Source: Gemmatimonadota bacterium | GTDB lineage: Bacteria; Latescibacterota; UBA2968; UBA8231 | NCBI GenBank assembly: GCA_038153405.1 | Contig: JAYOYH010000079.1 | Location: forward strand, 1-17,176 | Length of the DNA: 17,176 nt | Direction of reading: 5' to 3' | Part shown: positions 1 through 17,176 of the stretch, piece by piece | How positions within the stretch are numbered: the first letter of the stretch is position 1 | How the letters are laid out: each line of letters starts with the position of its first letter | Made by a program: the position numbers and the translations under genes | The notes under the pieces: model-generated | Told to the model about the DNA's origin: nothing | The model's database searches: none | Seen by the model: the letters and a program-made list of their open reading frames with translations, nothing else

Positions 1-33
1 AGTGCGTTTAAATCCCACGGCAAATGAGTTGTG

Positions 34-2013
34 ATGGTGCGAAGTTCAATATTTGTATGGACATCGTTGCTGGTATGGATTTCCGTAGTGACGCTTTCTC
101 CCGTCTGCGCACAAGAGGTCTTTCTCGTCGGGTCTGCGGACAGGCCTTGGAACGAGTTTGGCACGACACCCGGCGGCGTTATCGCCTATGTGGAGGCGTT
201 AGGCGATGTGCGCGATTCGGCCGGCGAGACCGTATTTGTCGACGTCCCCGACTCGCTTGGCGGTTGGCTCATGCCCCTGCGCCTCAGCCCGGAGTTCAAT
301 ATTTCCTCTGACGTGTTCGAGCGCGGCGGCAGCATTGACGTGCCGATCTTGGCGCGCAGCGAAGTGGATCCGGCCGAGTTGGAGGGCGTGCTCAACGGCG
401 ACCACGCCGTCGCCTACGATCGCAAATTTGTCGCCGGGCGCATCGTGCGCAACAACGGTATCACCATTCGCCTCGACTTGGGTGCGCGATTTGGCGTAGA
501 CCGGATTGTTTTCTATCCCAGAATGACCGAACAATTTCCCTTTGTCAGCGACTATCTGCGCGGCTACGAAATCTATCTGAACGACGGTCAGCCGCAGAAT
601 CTCTTTGCCAGCGGCCAGCCGATCTTCACTTCGCCCATACTGCGCGAACCCGATAACCGCCAAGCTCGAGTGGACGTGGGCATCGAGGCGCAGTTCGTGC
701 GCTATGTGGAACTGAAGTCGATATCGCCGCTCGGTTTTGAAATTGACGAAATAGAAATTTACGGACGAGGCTTCGTGCCGACGGCGCGCTATGTCTCTAA
801 TGTCCTCGACTTGGGCGAAGACGTGGTTTGGGGGCAAATTAACTGGAACGAAGTATTTGCCGGCCGCGAAGATGACTCCGAACTCGAGATTCGCGTGCGC
901 AGCGGCAGCGATCTGACGCCCGACGTCTACTATCGCACCGTATCGGTCGACGGCGTCAGCCAGCTGCTGCCGACCAATAGCAACGGCGATACGTTGACCG
1001 AAGCTAGCTATATGCGGCTCAAGGAAAACGAACGCGGCCCCATCCGCGTCGATATCGCCAACTGGAGCCAGTGGCAGCTGGCCGGCAACGGCGTAGAGCT
1101 AAACGTGCCGGCACCGCGCCGCTACTTCCAGTTTAGCATCGACTTCACCAACCGCGATCTGACGGCGAGTAGGGCGGTGGCCGATCTGGGTTTCGAGTAT
1201 GAAAAGCCGCCCGTTGATCGCATCGTCGCCGAGATAGGCCCATCGCAGACGCAGGTGGGCGAGGAAACCACGTTCACTTACTTTGCGCGCGTGGTAAACG
1301 CCAGCGGGCGAGCCGGCTTTAGCCGCTTTGAAGTGGAGACGCCCGCGCGCGTGGCGGCTGTCCGTTCGGTCGAACTCTTTGACGCGCAGGGCAATGTGCT
1401 GGAGGCAGCCGATTTCTCTGCGGCCAATTTGAACGAGCTGCCCATAGTCGACGGCGCGCTGTCCATTGAAGAAGTAACAGGCAATAGCTTCGCGCTGGGT
1501 CTGCCACAGGTCAGCGCGGACGGCGCGCTGCTGAAAATCGTTTTTGACGCGGCGGTTTTTCGCTATGGCACCCGCTTTCAAGGGCGCGCATTCACCGACG
1601 CCAGCACGGCGATTCCCCTGCAGACTGAGGGGGGTAATGCGACGGCGGAACTGCAGACCGACGAGCTGCTGGTGCGGGTGACGGTGGGCTCGCAGGTGGC
1701 TGGGGCGCTGAGCGCTGTGCCGCGCGCCTTTACGCCCAATGGAGACGGCGTCAACGACGAGGTGCAGATCAGCTATACCGTGCTCCATCTGCTCGAGCCC
1801 TCACCGGCGACTGTGCGCATCTACGATCTGGCCGGCAGCGTCGTGCGCCAGTTCGATGCGGGGCAAGTGCAAAACGGGCGCAGCGAGCTGCGCTGGGATG
1901 GCAAAGGCGATGGCGGCCAACCGCTGCCTCCGGGCACGTATATAGTGCAGGTAGAAATTCGCTCAGACAGCAGTACCGAGAGCCGCGCGCACAGCGTGGT
2001 GATTGCTTATTGA
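34..2013 (+). CDS. Secreted protein, paralog A: discoidin/F5-8C-like domain, conserved central domain, C-terminal FlgD-Ig/T9SS type-B-like domain
   Basis: 659-aa ORF from ATG 34 (GTG 31 also possible). Signal peptide ends VCA|QEV. Discoidin-like pattern NGD...LDLGARFGVDRIVFYP...YVEL...IDEIEIYG. C-terminal FTPNGDGVND...IYDLAG...WDGKGDGG..LPPGTY...VVIAY. Clear paralogy with 5824-7662 and 9412-12060. Confidence 0.85.
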   Translation: MVRSSIFVWTSLLVWISVVTLSPVCAQEVFLVGSADRPWNEFGTTPGGVIAYVEALGDVRDSAGETVFVDVPDSLGGWLMPLRLSPEFNISSDVFERGGSIDVPILARSEVDPAELEGVLNGDHAVAYDRKFVAGRIVRNNGITIRLDLGARFGVDRIVFYPRMTEQFPFVSDYLRGYEIYLNDGQPQNLFASGQPIFTSPILREPDNRQARVDVGIEAQFVRYVELKSISPLGFEIDEIEIYGRGFVPTARYVSNVLDLGEDVVWGQINWNEVFAGREDDSELEIRVRSGSDLTPDVYYRTVSVDGVSQLLPTNSNGDTLTEASYMRLKENERGPIRVDIANWSQWQLAGNGVELNVPAPRRYFQFSIDFTNRDLTASRAVADLGFEYEKPPVDRIVAEIGPSQTQVGEETTFTYFARVVNASGRAGFSRFEVETPARVAAVRSVELFDAQGNVLEAADFSAANLNELPIVDGALSIEEVTGNSFALGLPQVSADGALLKIVFDAAVFRYGTRFQGRAFTDASTAIPLQTEGGNATAELQTDELLVRVTVGSQVAGALSAVPRAFTPNGDGVNDEVQISYTVLHLLEPSPATVRIYDLAGSVVRQFDAGQVQNGRSELRWDGKGDGGQPLPPGTYIVQVEIRSDSSTESRAHSVVIAY

Positions 2014-2036
2014 GCGCTGTTAGCAGGGAGGAATAC

Positions 2037-4700
2037 TTGAATACTCGATTATTTTTATACGTGCTGGCCGTGCTGTGGCTAGCTGCGACGACACAGCTGG
2101 CCCTCGCGCAGGATACCGGCACGCGCTTGGGCTCCGTAAAGCGGGGCGGACGAGTCGACTTTTCGCCCAAGGGCCCCGGCGTGCTCTTTGATGCGCTGGA
2201 CCCGGCCGTTAAGAAATGGTACGTGCCGCAGGAGCTGTACAACGAGTACCGCTGGATGCAGTGGCAGTACACTAACTACGCCCGCGAAAACTACCAGCGC
2301 TACGTCAACACGTCGCAAGAGGGCGATTACTTCTACGACATATACGGCAACTTCGTCACGCGCGGCTGGTTGGTATACGACTGGCAGCAGAATCGCCCAC
2401 AGCAGTTTGGCAGCGGCATTCTCAAGACCAACCGCTACAACACGTGGTTCGACAAGCTGATTATTGCATCCGACAGCAAGGGGCAGTATCACTACAGCTT
2501 GACCATCGGCGACGCGATCCGCACCACGCTGACGCCGATGACCTTTTCCAAGCCCGGCTTTAACGGCGTGCAGTGGGATTTTGCCGCCGATAAGTACTCG
2601 GCCACGATGCTGCTGGCTCGGCCCAGTCGGCCCGGCATTTCGACCTCGCTCGACATTCCCGACCAAAAGACCAGTGCCACCAATCTGCTGGGCGGACGCA
2701 GCGTCATACACGTCGGCGATTTCGTCGAAGTAGGCGCTACCTACTTGACGGCCTTTCAGACGCAGACGCTGCTGGACGATTTTAGCGGCAACCCCTTTAG
2801 CGGCGGTGCTCTGACGACCGACCAGAATGCGCTGCCCATTTCGCGCATCGTCATCCGCCTGGCCGATGACTCGCCGCAGGACGGCATTGGCGGCGCGGCG
2901 CTCTTCGATGATGAAATCATCATAAAGGACACCGAAGGCAATGTCTATCGCGGCAGCCAGATCAACTTCGAACCGATTCGCGAAGGCGGCTTTCAGCGCG
3001 TCGGCTACATATCGGCCGACGGCGATGAGCGCATTACGCTGACCTACGATTTTACCGACCCGGCCTATATTGGACCCGATCCATCGGTGATCGAAGAAGT
3101 CTCCTTTGAACTGGTATTGTCCAACGACTACCGGGTGGAAGTCACATCCGACCGCCAGACCAACATCGATTCGCAGCCAGTCTTTTTGCTGGTAGAGCGA
3201 GCCGATGGCAATATTCGCGACAACTCCAACCAGCGCTTGCTGAAGTTCGACTATGGCCTGCCGACGGCGAACGTCATCTTTGGCTTTACGCTGGAAGCAA
3301 CCAAAGTCTGGGGCTTTGATTTCTACGGTGAGTACGACTTTAATCGCCAGTATCGCCAATATCCCAACGTCAATCTCAACGATCACCATAAGGCGATTAA
3401 AAAAGCCGATGCGTGGATGTTCAACCTATCGCGGGTCGACGACCCGTTTTTTGCCTTTCTCGAAGCCTACAGCATGGACGACGCCTATTCGACGCGCACC
3501 TATTTAGCTGGCACCTTGCGCCAGGACGAGATCGACTACGAAGACGAGACATTTTACGTGTACGAGTTTGTCGACGACAACGACGATCAGGACCGGCGCC
3601 CCGACTGGACCCGCTTTGGCCAGCCGCTCGTCGACAACGCCGTGTTTCCCGGCCTGGACGAAAACAACGACTTCATATCGGACTTCAACCAGAACGACAC
3701 CGAGGACCGCGAGAACTTCGTGCCCGACTACGAGGAGCCCTTTTTGCGCTACCATTCGGACCGGCCCGAGTTCTTGTTTGGCATCGATATGAACAACAAC
3801 GGCTGGATAGACCGCTTCGAGAACGACGAAGAGCCCGACTATCCCTACGGGCGCGACCTTCGGGGTCGCAACGCGTATGCCGGCGTCATGATTTCGCCGG
3901 AGGCCAAGCTGACGGTGGGGTGGCTGGACGAGGAGCTGATCTCCGGCGACGGACGCAATCGCAGCGCCTATATGCTTTTTACCTACGAGCGCGACGTGGC
4001 CGATTTGGGGCGGGTGCGCCTCTATGAAAATCTCCGTCTGGTCGAAGACAATATTCCCGACAATCTCTTTCAGTGGGTGCAGCCGCCCAATTCGCGCGGC
4101 ACGCATCAGCGCATATTTGACCCGCTGCCCGCCAGAGACACTTGGATCAACACCACATATGCGCAGGTCGACTACCGCGGCCTATCGCATTTGAACATCA
4201 TCAACAAGCTCAAGTACGAGGTGTATAGCCAGCGCGAAGAACACGGCGATTTGCGCGGGACCTCCAGCTTTTTTGGCTTGATAAACAAGGCCGATTACAC
4301 CATTGAACTGGGGCAGATAGAAATCGAACCGCGCATCAAGAGCGAGTATCTGCGCCAGCGTCCCTTCAGCAGGCGCGATCCCAAGCGCCGGGAGCTGACG
4401 GAGACGCTCTTTCTCATCGCTCGCTTCCCGCTGCTGCGCCATACGCTAATTGAACTGGGGCTGGAACTATCGCATTTCGAGCAGTTCCGCGACAGAGACG
4501 GCGTGCCGCTGCACCGTGCGCTAGAGCCAGACTCGAACAGCCGGATACTGGCCGTTCAATTCGCCAATGCCGGCGACTATCTGGGCTATAAGCTGCATCT
4601 GCAGACGGGTATGCGCCTGCAAAAGCAGACGTTTGAGAATCTGCCGTCCAGCACGACGAGCACTATTTTCATGACGGCGTACGCCGGTTTGGAGCGATAG
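2037..4700 (+). CDS. Large secreted protein, probable outer-membrane beta-barrel with an acidic calcium-binding-like insertion
   Basis: Start reassigned to TTG 2037 because GGAGG lies at 2027-2031 and this gives the signal peptide MNTRLFLYVLAVLWLAATTQLALA|QD. Many alternating amphipathic strands (FDFYGEYDF, YMLFTYE, INKADYTIELG, IELGLEL, LHLQTGMRL, IFMTAYAGL). D/N-rich segment at 3525-3848. The CDS is secure; the barrel fold is inferred. Confidence 0.75.
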   Translation: MNTRLFLYVLAVLWLAATTQLALAQDTGTRLGSVKRGGRVDFSPKGPGVLFDALDPAVKKWYVPQELYNEYRWMQWQYTNYARENYQRYVNTSQEGDYFYDIYGNFVTRGWLVYDWQQNRPQQFGSGILKTNRYNTWFDKLIIASDSKGQYHYSLTIGDAIRTTLTPMTFSKPGFNGVQWDFAADKYSATMLLARPSRPGISTSLDIPDQKTSATNLLGGRSVIHVGDFVEVGATYLTAFQTQTLLDDFSGNPFSGGALTTDQNALPISRIVIRLADDSPQDGIGGAALFDDEIIIKDTEGNVYRGSQINFEPIREGGFQRVGYISADGDERITLTYDFTDPAYIGPDPSVIEEVSFELVLSNDYRVEVTSDRQTNIDSQPVFLLVERADGNIRDNSNQRLLKFDYGLPTANVIFGFTLEATKVWGFDFYGEYDFNRQYRQYPNVNLNDHHKAIKKADAWMFNLSRVDDPFFAFLEAYSMDDAYSTRTYLAGTLRQDEIDYEDETFYVYEFVDDNDDQDRRPDWTRFGQPLVDNAVFPGLDENNDFISDFNQNDTEDRENFVPDYEEPFLRYHSDRPEFLFGIDMNNNGWIDRFENDEEPDYPYGRDLRGRNAYAGVMISPEAKLTVGWLDEELISGDGRNRSAYMLFTYERDVADLGRVRLYENLRLVEDNIPDNLFQWVQPPNSRGTHQRIFDPLPARDTWINTTYAQVDYRGLSHLNIINKLKYEVYSQREEHGDLRGTSSFFGLINKADYTIELGQIEIEPRIKSEYLRQRPFSRRDPKRRELTETLFLIARFPLLRHTLIELGLELSHFEQFRDRDGVPLHRALEPDSNSRILAVQFANAGDYLGYKLHLQTGMRLQKQTFENLPSSTTSTIFMTAYAGLER

Positions 4701-4741
4701 ACATTACACTTGAGAGTCGGGTGCCAATCTGTTATTTTCTT

Positions 4742-4801
4742 TAGTGAGCGCCTGTTCGGATGGCTTTGCCCGTTGCTTAGCTGAATGAGCGGCGTTCACT
4801 A
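4742..4801 (+). other. Intergenic RNA stem-loop upstream of the TWGQIK protein gene
   Basis: TAGTGAGCGCC (4742-4752) pairs with GGCGTTCACTA (4791-4801), 11 bp with one G-U. The interior can form GGC-TTT-GCC (4762-4770) and GCTTA/TGAGC (4775-4790). Confidence 0.55.
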
Positions 4802-4846
4802 CTCTGTTCCCTGTTGCTTTCTCATCAAGGTGAAAGCTATCTGCAA

Positions 4847-4853
4847 AAGGAGG
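4847..4853 (+). promoter_or_regulatory. Strong Shine-Dalgarno sequence for 4858..5727
   Basis: AAGGAGG lies 4 nt upstream of ATG 4858. Confidence 0.8.
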
Positions 4854-4857
4854 CTGT

Positions 4858-5727
4858 ATGAAGAAGCTCAACGCATTGCTGGGGGCCGCGCTCGTTGCGG
4901 CGCTCGCGACGGGTCCGTCTTATGGACACCAGGGGGAAATGAAGTTCATGTTCCAGTTCCCCGATCACTTGACGCCTACGCTGGACGGCGATATGTCCGA
5001 TTGGGATATCGTCGGTGAGGTGTATCAGATCCAAGGCGAGACCATGTTCAACCAGTTTGGTGCTCCGATGGATCTGAGCGATTTTAACGCCAAGCTGATG
5101 TGGGGGTATAACCTCAGTGCCAACAAAGCCTACTACGGAGCGTGGATCAGCGACGATATGATCAACGATACGGAAAAATGGTCGACGACCACCGACTGGG
5201 ACCACTCGGGCGGCATCTTCCGTCGCTTTGATCAGGGCGATGAGTTCGAGGCGCGCTGGGCCAGCGCACAGGCGCAGCGCTACGACGTTGCGGCGCCGAT
5301 TTTCAGCTCGTCCGGTTACTACACTCGTATAATTGACGGTTCGAAAGCGTGGGCCGGCACCGACCCTTATCTGATGTGGGGCGGTCAGTTCCTGCGCGGC
5401 GATGTCAATACGTTCGAGCCAGCTGAAATGTTCACCGAGTATGCGATGGTGCCTTTTGATGACATTCATCCCGACGGCCCCGATGCCAGTATTGAGCACA
5501 AGTTTGCCGAGGGCCAGATCGTCGGTATCGAAGTGAACTGGGGCGACAAAGACGCCGATCCGGGCGCCTACGACGACGCCTACTGGTCGGGCTTTGGCGG
5601 CGTCGGTGCATCGGCAGACGCCGACCAGTTTGGCGACTACCTGCTGGCGCCGATTGAGGCGGGTCTGCCCACGGCTACGGCTGTCGAGACCAGCACTTGG
5701 GGTCAGATTAAGACGAGCCTCGACTAA
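4858..5727 (+). CDS. Secreted CBM9/DOMON-like sugar-binding-fold protein with a C-terminal TAVExxTWGxIK tail
   Basis: 289 aa with strong SD and signal peptide MKKLNALLGAALVAALATGPSYG. PTLDGDMSDW matches the PxIDGxLxDW start of CBM9/DOMON-like domains. EYAMVPF and GQIVGIEVNWGDKD resemble the later strands of that fold. Ends LPTATAVETSTWGQIKTSLD. Confidence 0.8.
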   Translation: MKKLNALLGAALVAALATGPSYGHQGEMKFMFQFPDHLTPTLDGDMSDWDIVGEVYQIQGETMFNQFGAPMDLSDFNAKLMWGYNLSANKAYYGAWISDDMINDTEKWSTTTDWDHSGGIFRRFDQGDEFEARWASAQAQRYDVAAPIFSSSGYYTRIIDGSKAWAGTDPYLMWGGQFLRGDVNTFEPAEMFTEYAMVPFDDIHPDGPDASIEHKFAEGQIVGIEVNWGDKDADPGAYDDAYWSGFGGVGASADADQFGDYLLAPIEAGLPTATAVETSTWGQIKTSLD

Positions 5728-5770
5728 GAGCGCGTCGCAGGCCTGTTGTGACAGGCGATCAATGTAGTGT

Positions 5771-5810
5771 GTGGCGGGGTTCGCGGGCGACTGTGGACCC
5801 CGCCGCTTTG
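5771..5810 (+). terminator. 16-bp stem-loop with GCGA tetraloop: weak terminator or mRNA-stabilising hairpin
   Basis: GTGGCGGGGTTCGCGG-GCGA-CTGTGGACCCCGCCGC (5771-5806) gives 16 contiguous pairs including 4 G-U, followed only by TTTG and then the next SD (AGGAGG 5812-5817). Confidence 0.7.
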
Positions 5811-5823
5811 TAGGAGGTGTGCG

Positions 5824-7662
5824 GTGAGACGGCTTTTTCTATGGACATCGGTTTGCCTGCTGGCTGTATCGGCCAGTGGACGCGAACACTATCAGTTGGG
5901 TGGAGCGACGGGCGTCCCTTGGTCGGCCGTGGGCACACCCAGTTTTATCGACGAGGTGTTCGCACCGGGCAGCATTCGCCCGTTGAGTACCGAACTGAGC
6001 CACAACCTCGTTAGCACGATGCGCAATCGGGGCGGCGATCTCACCAGCTTAGTTAGCATTTACACCCTGCCGGCGAATTGGCCCGATACGCGCGGCTTTG
6101 CCGTTGACGGAGATCCGGCTACGGCCTTTGTACATCCGCCGCGCATCGACTTTTTTCGACCGGGCTATTTCTACACCACGCCCATGTTCTTCGACTTGGG
6201 TGCGCCGTTCCCCATAGAGCGCGTGGTCTTTTCGACTCGTCCCGATCAGCCGGGCAATAAAATACGACGGTTTCGTTTCTATCTGAACGACGGCAGTGCC
6301 GAAAGTCGAGACGACAAAGGAAACATAGTGTGGACGCTCGTGCACGATGAGAAAGACAATCTCAACGCGCGCGTGGAGCTGAGCGTCGAGCCTCAGATCG
6401 TACGCCATCTCTACCTGCACCCTCTGGAAGTGGGAGACACTTGGGAAGTCGCCGAGTTTGAGGTGTACGGTCAGGGGTTTGTTCCCAAGGCATCGTATAT
6501 TTCTGATCCCATTGATTTGGGTGCGCTGTCGAGTTTAGGGCGGATATGGTGGAGCGGTCAACGCGATGCCAATTCTAAAGTTCTGATTCAGACGCGCAGT
6601 GGTAGCGACGATCAGCCCGAAGTGTATTGGCGCAAAACAGGCGTTGGCGACCAAGAAGTTTCGACGCTGGCCAGCGGGGCTCCCATGTCGCGCGCCGACT
6701 ATTTTTCCACGCCGCAAAACGTGCGCGGTCGCATTACGCAAGACCTGGAAAACTGGAGCGTCTGGCATACCTATGAGTACGAAGATGGGCTCGACGGCAC
6801 GCGCATACTGTCGCCGGGTCCGCGCCGATTCGTGCAGCTGCGCATCGACTTTTCATCGCAGGCTTTGCAAGGTGGTCAGATTGACTCGCTGTTCTTTGAG
6901 TATTCGCAGCCACCTCTTGTCGGTACAGTGATCGGCGAGATTCACCCTTCATCGGTCAACCCCGCTGAACAGGTCCAGTTTACCTACGCTATTCGCGCGC
7001 GAATGGATGCGGGCCTGTCGGGCTTCGATCAGCTGGAATTGCGCACTGCGGCGCAGGTGGAAAAGATTTCGGCCGTGCGCATTGACCGCCAAGAAGTCGA
7101 CTACAGCGCGGCACTCGACCCGGACGATCCCCATCAGTTCAGGGTGAATTTCCCTCGTATAGATCAGGACCAGACCCTGCTGGAAATCGACTTTGATGCG
7201 CGCGTATTCGTATACGGAACGGTCTTTAGCGCCTCAGTAGTCGACAGCGAGACGGACGAAGTCGGTCAGGAAGTGACCCCCGGCGATGCCGTGGCGGCGC
7301 TCTTGAGCGACGACATTGTCGTCCACACCGCGCTTGAGGGCCGTTTACTCGATGACGTATCTATGGGACCAAATCCCTTTACGCCCAACGGAGACGGCAT
7401 CAACGACCAGGTGCAAATTCGCTATGCGCTGTTGCGCCTGACTAGAGCGATGCCGCTGACGGTAGAAATTCGCGATTTAAACGGTCGCAAAGTACGCGAT
7501 TTGAGTAGCAATAGTGGCGCGGGAATGCTGTATCAGCTGACGTGGGACGGTCTCGACGATGAGGGTCAGATGGCTGCACCTGGTCTATACATAGTGCGCA
7601 TTGCCGTGGAGGCCGACAGCGGCAGCGAGGAAAAACTGGGCTATGTTGCGTTGGCCTATTAG
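5824..7662 (+). CDS. Secreted protein, paralog B: discoidin-like domain, conserved central domain, C-terminal FlgD-Ig/T9SS type-B-like domain
   Basis: Start reassigned to GTG 5824 (AGGAGG 5812-5817), giving signal peptide MRRLFLWTSVCLLAVSASG and 612 aa. Motifs AVDGDPAT, FDLGAPFPIERVVF, VAEFEVYGQGFVP, TRSGSD, NWSVW, PGPRR and PNPFTPNGDGIND...WDGLDDEG...PGLY...VALAY. Confidence 0.87.
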   Translation: MRRLFLWTSVCLLAVSASGREHYQLGGATGVPWSAVGTPSFIDEVFAPGSIRPLSTELSHNLVSTMRNRGGDLTSLVSIYTLPANWPDTRGFAVDGDPATAFVHPPRIDFFRPGYFYTTPMFFDLGAPFPIERVVFSTRPDQPGNKIRRFRFYLNDGSAESRDDKGNIVWTLVHDEKDNLNARVELSVEPQIVRHLYLHPLEVGDTWEVAEFEVYGQGFVPKASYISDPIDLGALSSLGRIWWSGQRDANSKVLIQTRSGSDDQPEVYWRKTGVGDQEVSTLASGAPMSRADYFSTPQNVRGRITQDLENWSVWHTYEYEDGLDGTRILSPGPRRFVQLRIDFSSQALQGGQIDSLFFEYSQPPLVGTVIGEIHPSSVNPAEQVQFTYAIRARMDAGLSGFDQLELRTAAQVEKISAVRIDRQEVDYSAALDPDDPHQFRVNFPRIDQDQTLLEIDFDARVFVYGTVFSASVVDSETDEVGQEVTPGDAVAALLSDDIVVHTALEGRLLDDVSMGPNPFTPNGDGINDQVQIRYALLRLTRAMPLTVEIRDLNGRKVRDLSSNSGAGMLYQLTWDGLDDEGQMAAPGLYIVRIAVEADSGSEEKLGYVALAY

Positions 7663-7672
7663 GGAGGGATGG

Positions 7673-9412
7673 GTGTTATTGGGGCGATCTCTACATCATG
7701 GATTTTTGGTCATTGGTTTTCTGCTCTTCGCGCTCTTATCTGCGGGATGCTCAGAACCCGTAGCCCAACTGCCGGTCGGTTCGGTCGCGCGGATCGATAG
7801 TACCTTGATTGAAGCCGACTACGTTCGCGCGTTTGTCGAGCGCATAGCGCCTGGTCTGCGCTCGACAAACACAGGGAACGATGCGCGGCGAGACTATCTG
7901 CGCAGCGTGCTGGCTCGGCACCTGTTGGAAATGGAAGCACGTGCGCGCGGGTTGCACGAGGACGAGGTGATACGCACCGAATTTCGCCGGCTGTGGCGCC
8001 AGCGCTTGATAGAGGCTTATCGCCGCCAAATACTCCCCGGCGAAGTAGAGATCAGCGACGAGGAAATTCGCGCCTACTTCGTCGAGAGCGGTCTGAATCG
8101 CCGCCGTCAGATGGCCGGTATTCTCGTAGAAGACGAGGCGCTGGCGCAGCGCGTCAGCCAAGAGCTGGCCGCCGGTGCCGATTTTGGTCAGATGGCTCGT
8201 GCGCACAGCATTGACGAGCGCTCGCGCGAGCAGGACGGCGTGCTGGGCTTTATCGATCTGCTTGAAGCGCGTCGCTTGCAGGTTCCCGATGCGCTTTTTC
8301 GCGACTGGCCTGCCGGAAAGATTTCCGACGTTCTGCCGATGGGGCGGCGCTTTCAGCTCATTCGCTTTGGGCCGGAGCAGCCGGTGCCCTACCAGGAGCG
8401 CCGCGCGGATATTTACGAGCTGCTCTACGGGCAGAAGTTCGGCGAGTTAGAAGAGCGCGAAGTCCAGCGCTTGGAGCGCAGGCTCGATCTGAAAATGGTG
8501 CCGCAGGGATTGGCGTTGCTGCTCGAAAAAGGCGATCTCTACACGCGCTTACGCAGTGAACAGCTCTCCGGGGAAGAGCACCAAGTAGCGTTGTTCACCT
8601 ATAAGGGTGGTCAGATTACGCTGGGCGACTACGTGGAGATTTTGAGTCGAGATATGCGCTCGCTGTCGGGTTGGGGGCTGAGTGACGAAGCGGAGGTGCG
8701 CGAGGTGGCCAGCGAACTAGTCTTGACGCAGGTCATGCTCTTCGAAGGTGCGAAGAGGGCGGGCATTGCCGATCGGCCCGCTGAAAAAGCGTGGGCGGAG
8801 AACACGCAGCGGCGGCTGTTGATTGAGGAGTTGCGCAAGCGCGAGATCGTCGATCCGCTGCTCGTAACGCGCCAGGAGGCCAGAAATTACTACGATGAGC
8901 ACGCAGAGCTGTTTGTGGAATCCGACGAGTATATTCTGGTGGAACTATTGGTCGACGACCAAGAAAAGGCCCGTGCGCTGCGCCAGCAGATCGACGAGGG
9001 CGAGACGATTTCCTCTTTGGCCCAGCAGCACACGCAGCGCGCCGATACCAAGGAGGAAGCGGGTCTCATGCATATGGGCGACTACGAGCGCCTGGCCATG
9101 CCGGAGTTGCACAAGGCCGTGACGCAGGCCGAGAAGGGCCAGGTCGTTGGACCCGTGAAGGTCAGGGAGGGCTATAGCTTGTTCAAGGTCATGGATCGCC
9201 AGATCGGTAAGCTGAAACCCTTTGACGAGGTCGAGCGCAAAGCCCGTGCGCTGGTGCGCGCCGAAAAGAAAGAAGTGCAGTTTGAAGATTGGATCGACCA
9301 ACTGATGGAAAAGTACGCAGAGCGTATCGTCGTATCGGAGGAAGCGTTGGTTGGTGCGCTGCCCGATACGTTCTTGACGCGTTTGGCCGTTGGCGATGGG
9401 AGCGATAAATAA
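7673..9412 (+). CDS. Lipoprotein foldase/chaperone with two parvulin (PpiC-type) PPIase-like domains, PrsA/SurA-like
   Basis: Start reassigned to GTG 7673 (GGGAGG 7662-7667). Lipobox LSAG-C with Cys at 7748. Duplicated architecture with ISDEEIRAYF...GADFGQMARAHSID...GVLGFI...GKISDVL and VTRQEARNYY...GETISSLAQQHT...GQVVGPVKVREGYSLFKV...KPFDEV. Confidence 0.85.
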   Translation: MLLGRSLHHGFLVIGFLLFALLSAGCSEPVAQLPVGSVARIDSTLIEADYVRAFVERIAPGLRSTNTGNDARRDYLRSVLARHLLEMEARARGLHEDEVIRTEFRRLWRQRLIEAYRRQILPGEVEISDEEIRAYFVESGLNRRRQMAGILVEDEALAQRVSQELAAGADFGQMARAHSIDERSREQDGVLGFIDLLEARRLQVPDALFRDWPAGKISDVLPMGRRFQLIRFGPEQPVPYQERRADIYELLYGQKFGELEEREVQRLERRLDLKMVPQGLALLLEKGDLYTRLRSEQLSGEEHQVALFTYKGGQITLGDYVEILSRDMRSLSGWGLSDEAEVREVASELVLTQVMLFEGAKRAGIADRPAEKAWAENTQRRLLIEELRKREIVDPLLVTRQEARNYYDEHAELFVESDEYILVELLVDDQEKARALRQQIDEGETISSLAQQHTQRADTKEEAGLMHMGDYERLAMPELHKAVTQAEKGQVVGPVKVREGYSLFKVMDRQIGKLKPFDEVERKARALVRAEKKEVQFEDWIDQLMEKYAERIVVSEEALVGALPDTFLTRLAVGDGSDK

Positions 9413-12060
9413 TGGCGACGAATCGGCGGACTCTCAGCGCTTTGATCGGCCTTGCACTCCTCGTTTTTGCGACGCCCCCGCTGGCCCAGTCGCGTGGCTA
9501 CAGCCTGCGCGCCGATCGAGTGGAGACGAGCAGCAGCGCGCACTGGCAGGCGTGGGGCTTTCCCGGCGACATGGTCGAGGTCGATGCGGACGGTGCGATC
9601 CGCTCGCGCTTCGTGCGCGGCCCGTACAATGCGCTGTCCGATGCGGGCCAGTATAACCATGCCATTGTCAGCAATGTGCGCAGTCAGTACAACAACGCCT
9701 TTGATCTGGACGGTGAACTGCGCACGCGCGGCGGCATCAAGCAGGCTCCGTCGAACCCCAACTTGGCCGCGCGCATCATGGACGGGGACGAGGCGACGTT
9801 CTGGGAGCCCAACCCGAACGATCCGCTGAGCAATTGGGTGTTGGAAATCGACTTGGGCCGCCTAGTATCGGCGAGAAAGGTCGTTCTGCGCTTCGCCGAA
9901 GAAGGCGATCCCTTTCTGCAGTTCAGGGTGCACTCGGCCGGCGGCCAGAACCCCTTTGGCACGGCGGATCGCAGCGGCGCGCTCGACTACGTATTGGTCG
10001 GTGGCACGACGCAGCCCAATCGCGACCAGCGGCTGTTCGAGTTCGACCTAGATCCCATCGGACCCCATTCAGACGGTTGGACGGGACGCATGGTGCAATA
10101 CGTGCGCATTGCGGTCACAGACACGCGCGCCGACCGCGCCGAAGAAGTTTCTGCAGAAGCGTACCAAGCGATGCCCGCCGGCGAGCGCGGAGCCGTCGAA
10201 TATATCTGGCGCATCGCCGACGAAGAGCGTTTGGTAAGCGAAGAGCGCTACGGACAGCTCACGGCGAACGAACAGGGCGGCATTCGCTACTTTCGCCGCG
10301 AATTGCCGCGCTTGGCCGAAGTCGAGGTCCAGACCGTTGGCGAGAATATCTCGCTGGGGCTCATAGGGCGCGGCGGCAGCTTGCACGACGTCAACCCCAA
10401 CGCCTCGCCGGAACTGGCCTTCGACGGCAATATGAGCAGCGAATGGTCCGGTGTGGTGTACGACATAACCGGTGAAACGGTCGAGTGGGGTTTGCTCAAC
10501 GTCGATCTGGGCGCTCACTTCCGCGTCAACGCCGTGCGCCTAGTAACGCGCCTGCTCGACGGAGGTGGCCGCGTGCTCTACGGCTATTTGCTGCGCGGTT
10601 CGGATGGAGCGCGCGCGCCAGACGGCAGCTTTATCTGGGAAGATTTGAGCGGCGAAGACCGCTTGCTCAACCAGAACACCCGGCTTTTTGAAGACCGCTT
10701 CGATTCGCGCGTCCTGCGCTTTTTGGAATTTCGCAACTTGGATATTGCCCGTCGCACGCTGGCTCATCTGGGCCACCGCGTTCCCAGCGTAGTCACCGAA
10801 ATAGAGGTCTACGCCGAGGGTTATTTGCCGAGGCTGGAGATGCAGTCCGGCCTCATCGATCTGGGCGCGGCCAAAAACCTGACGACAATAGACTGGCAGG
10901 CCGATCTGCCGCCCGGCACGGCGGTGGAAATTCGCACGCGCAGCGGCGATGATTTGCGCGAGGTCAAGAGCTACTTCAAGGCCGACGGCACGCAGGTGGC
11001 TAACGAAGAGGAATACAATAAGCTGCCGACGTTTTTCCAGGGCGAAGTACAAGTCGAATTGCAGCCGGGTCAGGGCTGGAGCAGCTGGAGTCAGGCCTAC
11101 GATGCGCCCGGCGCGCGCGTTCTTTCGCCCAGTCCGCGCCGCTACATGATGGTGCAGGCACGCCTCTTTAGCGACGCGCAAGACGCCGTGGCCACGCTGC
11201 GCTCCATCCAAGTTCACTTCACCCTGCCACTGGCCGAGCGCATCGTAGGTGAGATCGAGCCCAAGCAGGAGGTGCCCATTGGCGTGCCGGCGGAATTTGA
11301 GCTCTTTGTGCGTCCGTCGTTTGCCGCGCGCGATTCGGGTTTCGATCGCGTGCGCGTCGTGGCACCCTCGCGGGCGGCCATGCATTTGACCCGCGTAGAT
11401 CTGGGGCGCGCGAGCGAGTTGGCGGCGGCCATCGGCGATGGCTACGCCCGCCGCGATGACGGTGCCCTGGTCGATGCAGCGGGTGAGATACTGACGGTGA
11501 GCGGCCAGGGCACAGACTCGCTCTTTATCGAACTGCCCGAGGTCCAGCAGCGCGGTGGAGCAGAAGTGCTGCGTCTATCGTTTTCATCGACCGTGTATCA
11601 AAGCGGATCGACCTTTGCCGTCGAAGTGGGCAATTCGCAGAACCCGGACAACTGGCAAAGCGTGGATCCGGGCGAAGGCGTTGGCGACGAGCTGGCGGTG
11701 GGGGAAGGGCTTACGGTTCTGACGCCCTTAGACAGTCGCATGATCAAGATGATTGCCAGTTCTGCTCTACTGACGCCGAACGGAGACGGCATAAACGACG
11801 AAGCGGCTTTTGAATTTGCCGTGCTCAAGGTTAACGCCGCGCGTTCCGTACGCGTATCGCTCTTCGATCTTAGCGGCCGGGCGATACGCCGCATCGAGGA
11901 GAGTCGAGGGTTGGCCAACGGGCAGTACAGCCTGCGCTGGGACGGTCGCGATGAGGGGGGTGAGCTGGTGCCTCCAGGGCTATATATGGCCCGCATCGGC
12001 GTCGATAGCGACGGCGAACATAGCAGCGATGTCAGTCGGATTGTGGGCGTAGCCTACTAG
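9412..12060 (+). CDS. Secreted protein, paralog C: two discoidin-like domains, conserved central domain, C-terminal FlgD-Ig/T9SS type-B-like domain
   Basis: 882 aa. The ATG overlaps the upstream stop (TAATG at 9410-9414). Signal peptide ends PLA|QS. Two repeats: MDGDEATFW...IDLGRLV...LAEVEV and FDGNMSSEW...VDLGAHF...VTEIEVY. Also TRSGDD, GWSSW, PSPRR and LTPNGDGIND...WDGRDEGG..VPPGLY...VGVAY. Confidence 0.88.
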   Translation: MATNRRTLSALIGLALLVFATPPLAQSRGYSLRADRVETSSSAHWQAWGFPGDMVEVDADGAIRSRFVRGPYNALSDAGQYNHAIVSNVRSQYNNAFDLDGELRTRGGIKQAPSNPNLAARIMDGDEATFWEPNPNDPLSNWVLEIDLGRLVSARKVVLRFAEEGDPFLQFRVHSAGGQNPFGTADRSGALDYVLVGGTTQPNRDQRLFEFDLDPIGPHSDGWTGRMVQYVRIAVTDTRADRAEEVSAEAYQAMPAGERGAVEYIWRIADEERLVSEERYGQLTANEQGGIRYFRRELPRLAEVEVQTVGENISLGLIGRGGSLHDVNPNASPELAFDGNMSSEWSGVVYDITGETVEWGLLNVDLGAHFRVNAVRLVTRLLDGGGRVLYGYLLRGSDGARAPDGSFIWEDLSGEDRLLNQNTRLFEDRFDSRVLRFLEFRNLDIARRTLAHLGHRVPSVVTEIEVYAEGYLPRLEMQSGLIDLGAAKNLTTIDWQADLPPGTAVEIRTRSGDDLREVKSYFKADGTQVANEEEYNKLPTFFQGEVQVELQPGQGWSSWSQAYDAPGARVLSPSPRRYMMVQARLFSDAQDAVATLRSIQVHFTLPLAERIVGEIEPKQEVPIGVPAEFELFVRPSFAARDSGFDRVRVVAPSRAAMHLTRVDLGRASELAAAIGDGYARRDDGALVDAAGEILTVSGQGTDSLFIELPEVQQRGGAEVLRLSFSSTVYQSGSTFAVEVGNSQNPDNWQSVDPGEGVGDELAVGEGLTVLTPLDSRMIKMIASSALLTPNGDGINDEAAFEFAVLKVNAARSVRVSLFDLSGRAIRRIEESRGLANGQYSLRWDGRDEGGELVPPGLYMARIGVDSDGEHSSDVSRIVGVAY

Positions 12061-13609
12061 CCGTCAGGGTGACGACATCGTCGTAGAGCCGTCGCTCGCT
12101 GCCCTGGTAGGAGCCGTCTGCGGCAAAGAGCGGAAAGACGTATACGGGTTTGAGCGTGGCCTGCCAGCGCCCATCGGCAAGCGGTTGTACATCGACTTCC
12201 AAATGACCATAGTGCTTTCCACCGTCGACGAGCCCGCCGTCGCTCCAGCGCTCGGGAGCGTGCGTGTGCGCGAGAAAGGCCTGCTGTGGATTGACTAGGT
12301 CCTGTTGAGGGCCGCGCAGTCCATCGCCGCCGATGCCTATATCGTAAAAGTGCACAGTGTGCGGCACCTGCTCACCGCTTTTGACCACTTCCATCCCATC
12401 CACTTCGGAGCGCTCCCACATTTCATCGTGTCCGGCCAGTACGGCGTCGACTCCATAGCGCAGAAAGAGGGGCGTTAGGGCGCGCACGGGCACGCCCGAC
12501 TGCGCGTCAAAGCCCTCACCTTGCCCCGGTGGCCAGCCGTGTGGCCCGACTGAATAGGGCGTGTGATGAAACATCACGAAGGTGAAATGGCGCGTGCGCT
12601 GCGCGTCGTCCAGCTGCGCTTCGAGCCAGGTGTACTGCTGAGATCCGGGTCCGAAATCAGGGGCGTGGCCGCCGCCTTCGTCGTCCTCTCCCAACAGGAA
12701 GAAGTTGGTGTCGCCGGCCGATTGGTGCGGACTGCCGTTGGCCACGTCCAGCCCGATCAGGGCGATGGGGCCGTAGTCAAAGCGATAGTAGCGGTTTTGC
12801 TGCTGCGGATTGTTTGAGCCGTTGGCGGGGAATTCAAAATAGCTACAGAAGCGCCCAATGGCCCGCTCGGAACCGGGCTGGTCGTAGCGGTCTAGATAGG
12901 GGCCTTCGTAGTACTCGTGATTGCCCGGTACCGCTAGAAGGGGCACGCGGCTAGCCAAGCTATTCTCGCCGTTTTCCGCCGTGATATGCCGCCAAAACTC
13001 ATCCCAATCGCGCTGTTCGCCGCCCGATTCAACCAGATCGCCGGCAATGGCGATAAAATCGGGTTGGCGACTGGCGATGACCGCCAGGTTGGCCGCGTAG
13101 CCGTCGGTCTGGTCGAGCGGGTAGAGCCGTTTTCCATCGCGATTGGGATCGGCCCAGTCGGCGCGTTTGCCAGTCGATTCGGGTTCGGTCTCGCTGTCGC
13201 TAAAGGCGATAAAGCGGATGGGCTGGTCGACGAGCGGCGCCGTGGCGAAGGCGGCGCTAAAGACGGAGGCGCCCTGTTCCACAGTGTAGGTGTAGGTCGT
13301 CGCCGCCTGCAGGTTTTCCAAGCGCAAGCGGTGGCGAAAGGGCGCGGCCGGGGCCTGTCCACCAAAGAAGGTCGTGTCTTCCCAGGTCGTATACGCCAGC
13401 GCATCGGCGCGCTGCGGCGCGGAGTCCAGTGCGGATTCCATGGTTGAACCCTGCGCGCGGTAGGTCAGTTTCCCCGGCGTCTGCGCGTCGGAAAACCACA
13501 GGATCGTCGCGCCGTTTGTCGCGGCGTTTTGGACGTAGGGAACGATGCGGAAATCGGCGCCTAGGGCGAGCCCAGGAAGCAAGACGGCCAGTGCGAAGAG
13601 TAGGAGCAT
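12032..13609 (-). CDS. Secreted calcineurin-like metallophosphoesterase with N-terminal FN3/purple-acid-phosphatase-like domain
   Basis: Motifs FSDSE, AGDLVE, VPGNHEY, FHHTPYS and VLAGHDEMWER. N-terminal HRLRLENLQAATTYTYTV is FN3-like, preceded by a hydrophobic signal peptide. Start uncertain: ATG 13609, TTG 13618 or GTG 13639. Confidence 0.88.
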   Translation of the reverse strand: MLLLFALAVLLPGLALGADFRIVPYVQNAATNGATILWFSDAQTPGKLTYRAQGSTMESALDSAPQRADALAYTTWEDTTFFGGQAPAAPFRHRLRLENLQAATTYTYTVEQGASVFSAAFATAPLVDQPIRFIAFSDSETEPESTGKRADWADPNRDGKRLYPLDQTDGYAANLAVIASRQPDFIAIAGDLVESGGEQRDWDEFWRHITAENGENSLASRVPLLAVPGNHEYYEGPYLDRYDQPGSERAIGRFCSYFEFPANGSNNPQQQNRYYRFDYGPIALIGLDVANGSPHQSAGDTNFFLLGEDDEGGGHAPDFGPGSQQYTWLEAQLDDAQRTRHFTFVMFHHTPYSVGPHGWPPGQGEGFDAQSGVPVRALTPLFLRYGVDAVLAGHDEMWERSEVDGMEVVKSGEQVPHTVHFYDIGIGGDGLRGPQQDLVNPQQAFLAHTHAPERWSDGGLVDGGKHYGHLEVDVQPLADGRWQATLKPVYVFPLFAADGSYQGSERRLYDDVVTLTASRLRPQSD

Positions 13610-13622
13610 AGCCCTCAATATA

Positions 13623-14408
13623 CTAGCCGTATGCTCCACTGGGCAAAAAACCCAATAGCACCCGCAGGCGCTCGTCGGCGTTTGCGTAGACGTGCTCGGG
13701 CATCTGGTAGTTCATAAAGGGCGCGTACTTGTGGCCGATCAGGCGGCGCGCGTAGCTGATTTGCGTCATGTAGCGCGTGCGCTGGCTGTCGTTGGGGCCG
13801 CCGCGATGCCAGACCTGGTTGTTGAACATCACCACAGATCCGGCTGGTCCCAAGCACGATGCGACGTGGGCCTCATACGGCGTGCCTTCTATCGGGTTGG
13901 GTGGACTGGCGCCAAATAGGTGGGAACCGGGAATGCACTGGGTTGGTCCGTGTGCGACCTCATCGACGTCGGTCAAGTAGTAGTTGGCGGTGAAGAGCAG
14001 CACGGGCAGGCGCACGTTGCTGGGCGGCTCGCCGTGCGTGACGATGTAGTGCGAAGGATCGTCTTGGTGCCAGGTGCTCAGGCCGCCGCCGGGCGGCGTG
14101 CGGAAGCTGTTGTTGTGCACGACGTGCGTCGTCGTGGCGATCAGCGCCTCGGCAAAGGTGGCGATCGGCTCTATGTCAAATAGCGATAGGTTGGCGCTGC
14201 TGCGCTCGAACATGCGCGGCCGCAATTCGATGGCTCCGCCGGGCGGTGGTGGGTTTTCAGCCAGTGCGTCGTCCAGGTCGTCGCGCAGCGTGGCGACGAG
14301 GTCGGGAGGAAGCACGCTGCGCAGAAATAGAAATCCGTCCCGGTGAAATTGCTCAACCCATTCTGCAATTTGACGCTCGTCAGCCGTGATCATCGATCTA
14401 TTCGCCAT
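13623..14408 (-). CDS. Phytanoyl-CoA dioxygenase (PhyH) family Fe(II)/2-oxoglutarate dioxygenase
   Basis: FHRDGFLFL, WHQD (HxD), YYLTDV...GPTQCIPGSH, GPAGSVVMFN..VWHRGGPN...R. Start reassigned to ATG 14408 (MANRSM, AGAAGG upstream), which removes the overlap with the divergent gene. 261 aa. Confidence 0.9.
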   Translation of the reverse strand: MANRSMITADERQIAEWVEQFHRDGFLFLRSVLPPDLVATLRDDLDDALAENPPPPGGAIELRPRMFERSSANLSLFDIEPIATFAEALIATTTHVVHNNSFRTPPGGGLSTWHQDDPSHYIVTHGEPPSNVRLPVLLFTANYYLTDVDEVAHGPTQCIPGSHLFGASPPNPIEGTPYEAHVASCLGPAGSVVMFNNQVWHRGGPNDSQRTRYMTQISYARRLIGHKYAPFMNYQMPEHVYANADERLRVLLGFLPSGAYG

Positions 14409-14464
14409 GCGCGGCCTTCTTTTATACCTTAATTTGCAATAATGAAGAATGAAAGGATATCGCC
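14409..14464. promoter_or_regulatory. Short AT-rich divergent intergenic region between the PhyH and DsbA-like genes
   Basis: 56 bp, strongly AT-rich relative to its flanks. Contains SD-like elements for both genes (GAAAGGA on +, AGAAGG on -). No convincing -35/-10 pair. Confidence 0.45.
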
Positions 14465-15274
14465 ATGCCCACGCTAGCAAGCTTTGCGGCTTTTGCCGCT
14501 TTTTTTGTAGCCGGTTGTGCGCCGAGCGCCGAGCAAATTAAGCATCTTTTGGCGGAGAATCCAGAGATACTTACCGATGTGATAAGAGAAAATCCACAGG
14601 TGGTATTTGACACTATCGAGAAAAACCCGGAGCGGTTTATGGCCGCGGTCAACGCGGCGGCTCAGGTTGCGCGCGCGCGCGCGCAGGCCGAAGAGGAGCG
14701 CCGCGAAACGGAGCAGCGCGAGGTCGAATTCGATAATCCTAAGCAGCCCGAACTAGCCGTTGGTCGCGTGTACTGGGGTCAAGCGCAGGCGCGCATTACC
14801 ATCGTCGAGTACTCGGATTTTGAGTGCCCCTACTGCGCGCGCGGCTACCGCACCGTAAAAGAGCTGATGGCCGAGTATGGCGACGATGTGCGATTGCTCT
14901 ACAAGCACCTGCCGCTGGAAATGCACGAAGGCGCCCTGCCGGCGGCACTTTACTTTGAGGCCATAGCGCTACAGTCGGACAGCGCGGCGCGCCAATTTCA
15001 CGATGCGCTCTACGAAAATCAGGGACAGCTGCGCGCGCAGGGAACGGCGTGGATGGATGAGGTGGCGCGCGGCTTGGGGCTCGATATGGCGCGCCTGCAG
15101 GTCGACGTCGAGTCGGACGCTGTGCGGAGGCGAGTCGAAGCAGATATGGAGGAAGCCGCCTCGTTTGGCTTTACCGGCACGCCCGGCTTTCTGATCAACG
15201 GTGTATCGCTAAAGGGGGCCTATCCGGCGTCGGCTTTTAGAACGATTATCGATCGCCAATTGGGCACCCCATAG
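14465..15274 (+). CDS. DsbA-family thioredoxin-fold lipoprotein (Com1/BdbD-like)
   Basis: IVEYSDFECPYC active site, YKHLPL, and FTGTPGFLING cis-Pro loop. Lipobox VAG-C. N-terminal LAENPEIL helical segment typical of Com1/ScsC-like DsbA proteins. SD GAAAGGA. Confidence 0.92.
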   Translation: MPTLASFAAFAAFFVAGCAPSAEQIKHLLAENPEILTDVIRENPQVVFDTIEKNPERFMAAVNAAAQVARARAQAEEERRETEQREVEFDNPKQPELAVGRVYWGQAQARITIVEYSDFECPYCARGYRTVKELMAEYGDDVRLLYKHLPLEMHEGALPAALYFEAIALQSDSAARQFHDALYENQGQLRAQGTAWMDEVARGLGLDMARLQVDVESDAVRRRVEADMEEAASFGFTGTPGFLINGVSLKGAYPASAFRTIIDRQLGTP

Positions 15275-16581: not shown

Positions 16582-16665
16582 GACTTGAGTTAATCATTGG
16601 AGCATCGTACATTTCCAGCCTGTTCGTTTGCGATCATGCCCATCGGCCCCATCAAGGAGTTTGAC

Positions 16666-17176
16666 GTGCGTAGACATCTTCCCGTCTTCACGATACTGCT
16701 CATACTGGCCACCTATGCCGACGCTCAAATCGGCGTATTTAAATTTGGCGGCAGCGGAAACGCTTGGAGCCGCAGTGACAGCAACACGGTCTTCGTCGAT
16801 TTTGACTCCTTTCCCGGCTCCATTGCGCCGATCTATTTCAACGGCGCGGACAATATTCTCGACCAGCTGCCGTTTTGGTCGCCCTTCAAATTTCCGACCG
16901 AACTGGACTACGAAGACGGGCTGATACCCCGCGTGTGGCGCGCCGCCAACGGGTTTTACTGGTATACGGCCGGCACATTGACGACGGAGTGGGTCGACGG
17001 AGACAGTTCGTCCTACAGTCCGCCAGTGCGGCGCGGCATCGAGTCGGAGTGGTACACGTTTGACGTGGGCGTGCCGGTGCCGGCTCACGTCGTGGGTTTT
17101 TACACGCCGCCCACCGGTTTTCGCGCCGACGGCACGCCGCTGAGCGACGATATCTTCAAGGCGTTTGAGGTTTCTA
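16666..17176 (+). CDS. Secreted protein, paralog D of the discoidin/CTD family (3' truncated by the window edge)
   Basis: Not in the ORF track because there is no stop in the window. AAGGAG at 16654-16659, then GTG. Manual translation: MRRHLPVFTILLILATYADA|QIGVFKFGGSGNAWSRSDSNTVFVDFDSFPGSIAPIYFNGADNIL...WVDGDSSSYSPP...WYTFDVGVPVPAHVVGFY...FKAFEVS. This aligns with paralog B (YQLGG..GVPWS...FID..FAPGSIRP...VDGD...FDLGAPFP). Confidence 0.85.
   Translation, partial: MRRHLPVFTILLILATYADAQIGVFKFGGSGNAWSRSDSNTVFVDFDSFPGSIAPIYFNGADNILDQLPFWSPFKFPTELDYEDGLIPRVWRAANGFYWYTAGTLTTEWVDGDSSSYSPPVRRGIESEWYTFDVGVPVPAHVVGFYTPPTGFRADGTPLSDDIFKAFEVS

Follow-up and report, generated by a model that had tools for sequence, protein, structure and literature searches.

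Contig JAYOYH010000079.1 (assembly GCA_038153405.1, Gemmatimonadota bacterium, placed in Latescibacterota by GTDB), called the window here over its full 17,176 nucleotides, encodes three proteins, A, B and C, that end in similar domains closing with Ala-Tyr. [quoted passage not shown] A sequence-only reading had proposed a hybrid signal, part T9SS type B and part FlgD immunoglobulin-like (Ig), whose invariant Ala-Tyr strand is recognized by, or donated to, a system built on a neighboring barrel. Our analysis shows that the Tyr-ended tails are a class of C-terminal domains (CTDs) distinct from the 49 type-A-like tails of the same genome. With a probability of roughly 0.55, they are a lineage-specific variant of the type B signal, holding the protein on the surface through an outer-membrane barrel of the same module. 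The features central to this question are the following.

31..2013, + strand: protein A, open reading frame (ORF) of 660 aa; N-terminus resembling a signal peptide by eye; CBM32/discoidin-like domain, further beta-sandwich domains and Tyr-ended CTD predicted from the AlphaFold2 (AF2) model
1690..2013, + strand: CTD of A; TPNGDG motif at 1729; ends VVIAY; seven predicted strands (DSSP)
2010..4700, + strand: predicted large outer-membrane beta-barrel of 896 aa with an acidic insert (the giant barrel), candidate partner of the tails
5767..7662, + strand: protein B, paralogue of A; 631 aa from the first GTG, the true start probably lying later
7339..7662, + strand: CTD of B; motif at 7378; ends VALAY
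9412..12060, + strand: protein C, longer paralogue of 882 aa with F5/8 type C matches
11731..12060, + strand: CTD of C; motif at 11770; ends VGVAY

Two Classes of Tails in the Genome

A tail profile built from 42 motif-bearing ORFs was run on our own gene calls for this genome (3866 genes; 93% complete; labelled G000). The matches fell into two well-separated classes, with 52 tails scoring above 50 bits (Tyr class) and 49 weaker ones (K/R class). All Tyr-class domains are C-terminal and end at the stop codon in a fixed register, and the 52 proteins, predicted to be sugar-binding surface proteins, share a homologous body (one BLAST cluster). The 49 K/R-class tails are spread over 23 body clusters; 38 of them contain PNPFN and none TPNGDG, and 42 end in Lys or Arg, an ending found in 0/52 of the Tyr class.

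Sequence and Terminal Residue of the Tyr-Class Tails

Translation agrees with the reported lengths of 94, 94 and 96 aa from (F/L)TPNGDG(V/I)ND to the stop (1729-2013, 7378-7662 and 11770-12060), and the shared motifs [IL]xDLxGxx[VI]R, WDGxxxxG and PGxY are present in all three tails, as are the ends VVIAY, VALAY and VGVAY. The domain itself starts about 13 residues ahead of the TPNGDG motif.

The AY ending is found in 37/52 family genes against 4/3814 non-family genes, far above chance (any terminal Tyr: 75/3814). The Ala is not invariant, however. Indeed, the 52 family genes end in AY (37), VY (11), SY, IY, AH and AW (one each), so that 50 of them end in Tyr, and the general pattern across the family is [VIL]x[VIL][AV]Y. 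Among 231 distinct tails from 159 barrel loci of relatives, VY (131) outnumbers AY (71), with Tyr in 224. The 120 homologues of A listed, from 177 found, comprise 55 AY, 47 VY, 13 other xY and 5 non-Y ends, and the 50 close homologues comprise 24 VY, 21 AY and 5 IY. Because AY and VY are mixed in the genome, in relatives and in the homologues of A, the conserved residue is the Tyr: it is kept in 136/138 aligned rows at a mean column identity of 25%. The other invariant or nearly invariant CTD columns are P542, N543, D545, G546, N548, D549, L573, G575, G589, W595, D596, G597, P607, G608 and Y610, the Tyr being Y633.

The sequence-only reading had also pointed to a DNA identity of 42/48 between A and B over the first 48 nt of the motif region, in proteins held to be otherwise divergent. 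The count was reproduced. The two proteins are full-length paralogues (bodies 31% identical over 488 columns, E 3e-61; CTDs 44%), and the remainder of their CTDs shows 19-24 identities per 48-nt block. Over this block no other of the 990 paralogue pairs, drawn from the 45 members in which the motif could be placed, scores higher, with P = 0.0014 for the A and B peptides under the codon usage of the genome, before correction for the choice of the best pair. Gene conversion or a DNA element was rejected, as the match is not kept in relatives (29-35/48 in the 15 loci, of 21, in which two tails were seen; 33/48 in the closest locus). We take it for a fortuitous maximum over a conserved motif, for which a special mechanism is unneeded.

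Profile Scores and Nature of the Module

The window tails were scored in isolation against PF13585 (cut-off 27), PF13860 (27), TIGR04131 (35) and TIGR04183 (23). All three pass PF13585 (A 42.1, B 31.8, C 29.0) and PF13860 (A 51.3, B 34.9, C 33.3), the latter naming a fold and implying no flagellar role, and only A passes TIGR04183 (A 26.2, B 18.9, C 16.2). For 47 of the 52 Tyr-class tails, matches at E <= 0.01 were obtained with PF13585 (46/47), PF13860 (46/47), TIGR04131 (42/47) and TIGR04183 (28/47). Of the K/R type, eight tails were scored (five of this genome, three of relatives): each matches TIGR04183, 7 of them above cut-off, and none matches TIGR04131.

The two motif sets taken as a hybrid turned out to belong together. 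The tail profile matches FlgD, the PorU CTD and, within streptococcal C5a peptidase, an internal domain with both motifs (E 9e-9). In a profile search over 1.84 billion proteins, the best 150 of 861 matches at E <= 1e-30 are all multi-repeat proteins, and 133 of these 150 have at least one domain carrying both motifs. Since both sit in single domains, the CHU_C and FlgD_ig models describe overlapping portions of a single fold, and the supposedly hybrid tail is an ordinary Ig module. Its internal copies have the same alternating last strand, without the Tyr.

Nor is the ending specific to this system. On Bacteroidota plasmids, five type B CTDs linked to PorP/SprF have the last strand in the same register, their ends being Y, R, K, K and a short extension; the Tyr-ended one lies on Hymenobacter volaticus plasmid NZ_CP095068.1. 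A terminal Tyr is therefore permitted in an ordinary type B CTD.

Predicted Structures

The AF2 model of mature A has a predicted local distance difference test score (pLDDT) of 95.6. Its CBM32/discoidin-like domain occupies residues 61-218 (match 4zxe, Z 14.8, root-mean-square deviation (rmsd) 2.4, 129 aligned). The CTD has seven strands, the last at residues 622-631 of 633 (block pLDDT 90-96), and the model matches PorU 6za2_B with Z 13.1 and rmsd 2.3 over 102 aligned residues. Seven-stranded sandwiches are what PMC10994853 and PMC11285876 describe for T9SS CTDs. As no strand is lacking in the predicted fold, strand donation is not required, and this part of the earlier proposal is not supported. 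Most of the conserved columns map to the A-B, C-D and E-F loops and to the terminus; judging from general Ig topology, the PNGDG loop, DLxG turn, DGxDxxG loop and terminal Tyr would cluster at the distal tip.

The model of the 896-aa protein (pLDDT 79.9) shows about two dozen long strands and a long acidic loop. All 50 VIA matches listed are membrane beta-barrels, the best being 7zgx (Z 14.8, 384 aligned); its rmsd of 7.4 indicates a giant barrel without a close relative among them. PorP/SprF is not among the 50 matches listed, which excludes nothing. Foldseek on the whole models gave only matches of low template modeling score, and the barrel matched no Pfam or NCBIfam family; its Atlas neighbors are unnamed Latescibacterota/Gemmatimonadota clusters. 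The Asp/Asn-rich long loop (model residues ~463-583 of the barrel, 2109-4697) holds many family-invariant columns and is possibly calcium-binding.

Linkage and Co-Occurrence with the Giant Barrel

The genome encodes 23 paralogues of the giant barrel; for 21 of them a tail gene is no more than 10 kb away, and for 16 a tail gene is located directly upstream. Conversely, a barrel is no more than 10 kb away for 34/52 Tyr-class genes; the figures are 3/49 for the K/R class and 199/3866 for all genes. In relatives, labelled Candidatus Latescibacterota or Gemmatimonadota, the gene upstream of 170 barrel ORFs is a tail gene in 146 cases, another barrel in 22 and nothing labelled in 2, a count that omits 46 ORFs at locus edges and comes from loci biased to close homologues.

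Among 80 genomes of the phylum, the barrel was found in 43, the family in 43, both in 42 and neither in 36, with only 15 candidates per genome scored in part of this tally and related genomes not being independent. The genome tallied as barrel-only, G003, has one divergent family member, and the one tallied as tail-only (G029) is 75% complete. Three barrel-less genomes yielded no full-length tail (best 50-57 bits versus 104-114 for true members), and neither family nor barrel was found in the 32 genomes of families f2 and f3, which are SprA-positive.

Two attempts at reaching the partnership directly were set aside. Coevolution between barrel and CTD (152 pairs, effective n 52-74 for ~970 columns) was discarded because the top pairs within the barrel, ranked by mutual information with average product correction (MI-APC) as a positive control, were unlike hairpin contacts; the barrel-CTD identity correlation of 0.83 was not counted, being expected from block duplication. 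A complex prediction of the giant barrel with the CTD of A (residues 525-633) scored 0.00 and its controls did not fold, and it was counted neither way.

Barrels also occur in other surroundings. The giant barrel family has expanded by itself in genome G054, where many matches are solitary or in fragments, and in G003, where many barrels are close to proteins with a short Trp-containing tail or to DUF4159-type genes, several adjoining one of ~440 aa.

Secretion Machinery and Small Barrels

Core T9SS genes are present. SprA was identified in this genome by TIGR04189 above cut-off in a 2133-aa frame and occurs in 80/80 genomes of the phylum; PorU scores 665.7 bits, and the PorV family has seven matches above cut-off. 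The best weak PorP/SprF match is the last gene of a tail/barrel locus of contig C10. A PorP/SprF-family gene was not found directly downstream of the tail gene in the window or in 16/23 barrel loci, where the giant barrel stands instead.

In five master loci from five families, a PorV/PorP-like barrel of ~300-350 aa lies directly downstream of the tail gene and is followed by giant barrels. Where the stretch is long enough, the giant barrels of these small-barrel-first loci are in turn followed by a tetratricopeptide repeat (TPR) protein of ~1090 aa (four loci) and ExbB/ExbD-type genes (three loci). In hhalign comparisons the small barrels reach 99.7% with PorV and 86.5% with PorP, and one of five tested passes PF11751 (24.3 vs 22.3). 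Such a weakly PorV/PorP-like gene takes this downstream place in master loci only. The master loci and operons are as follows.

Small barrel first: this genome C7, G003, G006, G015, G001 C224
Giant barrel first: this genome C34, G054, G001 C59
ExbB/ExbD-linked master operons of this genome, with a ~1080-aa TPR protein: C7:72465-91080; C34:20416-39048; C85:9835-14706

The C85 operon is incomplete, as its contig breaks off within a small PorV-like gene. In a quick unrooted tree in which long branches meet, the master-operon copies of the tail family group apart from 50 expanded copies including A, B and C (Shimodaira-Hasegawa-like approximate likelihood ratio test, SH-aLRT, 98). Given such a tree, the grouping is no more than suggestive, and the identity of the original carrier is inferred: we favor the small PorV/PorP-like barrel of the ExbBD-linked master operon, with the giant barrel serving for docking, or as a working partner, in expanded cassettes like that of the window.

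Comparison with Known Systems

The closest known counterpart is the T9SS type B CTD (TIGR04131, PF13585), as in SprB-SprF and PG1035-PorP-PorE. Judged by PMC12618676 and PMC9143113, the two are alike in the TPNGDGxND loop, the terminal position and the last-strand register, in having a barrel gene directly downstream, and in including orphan tails. They differ in several respects. The tails described here are ~8-10 residues longer, with full FlgD-Ig loops; their Tyr is almost fixed, while the Bacteroidota ends are R, K, Y or a short extension; they are confined to one paralogue family; and the usual downstream gene encodes a barrel of ~900 aa that is not related to PorP/SprF with its 14 strands, with GldLMN not detected in this genome.

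The type A CTD (TIGR04183; PorU and RgpB CTDs) has the same seven-strand Ig sandwich, as the PorU 6za2 match illustrates. The type-A-like tails of this genome have the WDG and GxY motifs in common with the Tyr tails, but differ in their PNPFN start, Lys/Arg end, diverse cargo and lack of barrel linkage. In streptococcal C5a peptidase (PDB 1xf1, 3eif), SPNGDG and WDGxDxxG...GxY stand together in one fibronectin-like domain; this domain and the FlgD Ig-like domain (PF13860) are the same module as the tail, internal or flagellar there but always terminal and Tyr-ended here. We take Ton-powered SusC/SusD-type uptake modules to be alike in their repeated cassettes of barrel and binding protein, and the master operons here have ExbB/ExbD-type genes; the differences are that the barrel here has no Pfam/NCBIfam match and that its partner is a CTD-tailed CBM32-like protein and not a SusD lipoprotein. 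No paper on the Tyr-ended tail or the giant barrel was found in the open-access library searched.

The tail is thus a variant of a known signal type, and most of the interest lies in the surrounding module. T9SS signals have been studied almost solely in Bacteroidota, and two separate CTD classes occur here in another phylum of the Fibrobacterota-Chlorobiota-Bacteroidota (FCB) group, in which every sampled genome has SprA and, in this genome, the GldLM motor went undetected. If a dedicated barrel does read the Tyr class, the carrier rule (type A with PorV, type B with PorP/SprF) would gain a third pairing, and a TPNGDG domain ending in [VIL]x[VIL][AV]Y would offer a sequence handle for the cargo of an unnamed barrel family.

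Weighing of the Explanations

According to PMC12618676, type B cargo of Bacteroidota depends on its cognate PorP/SprF carrier, mostly encoded directly downstream and sometimes shared by orphans, and PMC9143113 describes PG1035 as staying uncleaved on PorP, independent of PorU and PorV. On the simplest reading, another phylum follows the same logic. The steps beyond the gene evidence are inferred by analogy with SprB-SprF and PG1035-PorP. Family proteins would be exported by Sec, folded with the aid of the linked peptidyl-prolyl isomerase (PPIase) and passed through SprA without PorU cleavage. The folded tail would then be captured by the carrier barrel, keeping the lectin-like protein at the surface. 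The signal would be the folded distal surface, with Tyr taking the place of the usual terminal Arg/Lys.

Several observations weigh against this type B reading. TIGR04131 is passed by one window tail in three, and solely in isolation (A 36.4, B 21.6, C 22.9), and 0/3 master-operon tails match it at E <= 0.01. One homologous body carries all 52 tails and the tail is absent from unrelated cargo, so that portability, by which a sorting signal is recognized, is not observed here, and the conservation may be inherited; indeed, among homologues of A, the CTD is conserved no better than the body. Eighteen of the 52 tails are orphans without a barrel within 10 kb, and barrel matches, which are not copy numbers, exceed tails in G054 (60 vs 2), G003 (15 vs 1) and G006 (6 vs 1). 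The giant barrel is unlike PorP or PorV (hhalign <1%), and the five master operons with a small PorV/PorP-like barrel directly 3' of the tail gene speak against a strict pair of tail and giant barrel. In this 93%-complete genome, PorP/SprF was not above cut-off (PF11751/TIGR03519, PF11751 being without a positive control), and GldL, GldM and GldN were not found (TIGR03513, TIGR03517, PF19841), the control genomes being likewise unmatched and GldK not having been searched for.

In a rival reading, the tail is no T9SS signal but a docking domain for the giant barrel, or a structural end-cap, in a separate ExbBD-powered capture or uptake machine whose giant barrel exports or holds the lectin. Master operons that join a Tyr-tail gene, giant barrels, the ~1090-aa TPR protein and ExbB/ExbD-type genes (C7, C34, G003, G006, G054) fit such a machine, as do the failure to find GldLMN, the confinement of the tail to related cargo and the internal Ig modules of proteins without a T9SS link. 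The domain is nevertheless always last and ends in a fixed register, like T9SS CTDs; SprA is universal in the sample; five master loci have a PorV/PorP-like gene 3' of the tail gene; and barrels can expand without tails. We therefore hold this explanation to be unlikely, if a serious competitor. We think it less probable still that the tails are ordinary T9SS CTDs handled as type A (PorV carrier, PorU cleavage), the Tyr end and barrel linkage being by-products of block duplication of an ancestral operon. A single paralogue family, the orphan tails, the presence of PorU and several PorV genes, the PorU match of the model (Z 13.1) and the TIGR04183 matches (28/47, with A above cut-off) all speak for such handling. 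Against it stand the retention of Tyr in 136/138 rows and 224/231 tails of relatives, while 42/49 K/R tails end in Lys/Arg, and the 32 SprA-positive f2 and f3 genomes in which neither family nor barrel was found.

That the terminal [VIL]x[VIL][AV]Y strand comes free and is given to a partner, or is recognized in the manner of a BAM beta-signal, which it presumably resembles, is very improbable. Its alternating hydrophobic residues and free terminal aromatic would suit such a role, but the model has all seven strands in place (the last at 622-631 of 633), internal copies share the alternating last strand without the Tyr, and the proteins are predicted to be soluble beta-sandwich chains, not barrels. 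The type B reading, for its part, retains from the sequence-only reading a distinct tail class that is type-B-like by profile, linked to the barrel and co-distributed with it; the invariant AY, the hybrid, the donation and the specificity to one system are not supported. Of the observations that would refute the sequence-only reading, half were made: the AY is unconserved and the genome has SprA, PorV and PorU, but no full tails were found in the three barrel-less genomes checked. Going further, the Tyr tail could be the address label of an undescribed Latescibacterota envelope machine: a third class of T9SS-type signal, read by a new giant-barrel family, with an ExbB/ExbD-type motor and a long TPR scaffold replacing GldLM, displaying dozens of lectin variants and possibly importing their catch. 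We hold this stronger version to be unlikely.

Other Genes of the Window

Protein A, the giant barrel, a 289-aa ORF, protein B, a PPIase and protein C form one run on the + strand. The PPIase is probably the dedicated foldase of the module. A further family member leaves the window at its 3' end, where the contig and the start of contig C45 share 55 nt; because of this overlap, it and a family ORF at C45:1-1557 ending in PVGIAY are probably one fourth Tyr-tail protein. The last four genes listed are unrelated to the module.

4858..5727, + strand: 289-aa protein with a signal-peptide-like start and a C-terminal [ST]WGx[IVL]K motif
7601..9412, + strand: parvulin-type PPIase with two rotamase domains (PF00639, PF13145); lipobox-like Cys by eye
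16597..17175, + strand: fourth family member, 5' part
12032-13639, - strand: purple acid phosphatase-like metallophosphoesterase
13623-14480, - strand: PhyH dioxygenase
14465-15274, + strand: DsbA-like thioredoxin
15291-16457, - strand: probable lipoprotein of 388 aa, no Pfam match

The [ST]WGx[IVL]K end of the 289-aa protein is found in 13 genes of the genome, of which 8 have a barrel no more than 10 kb away, and a paralogue of this protein has a CBM9-like match. Similar short Trp-containing tails were seen in G003 near barrels that have no Tyr-tail neighbor. This end may be a second sorting tag, or the protein carrying it may be the more constant partner of the barrel.

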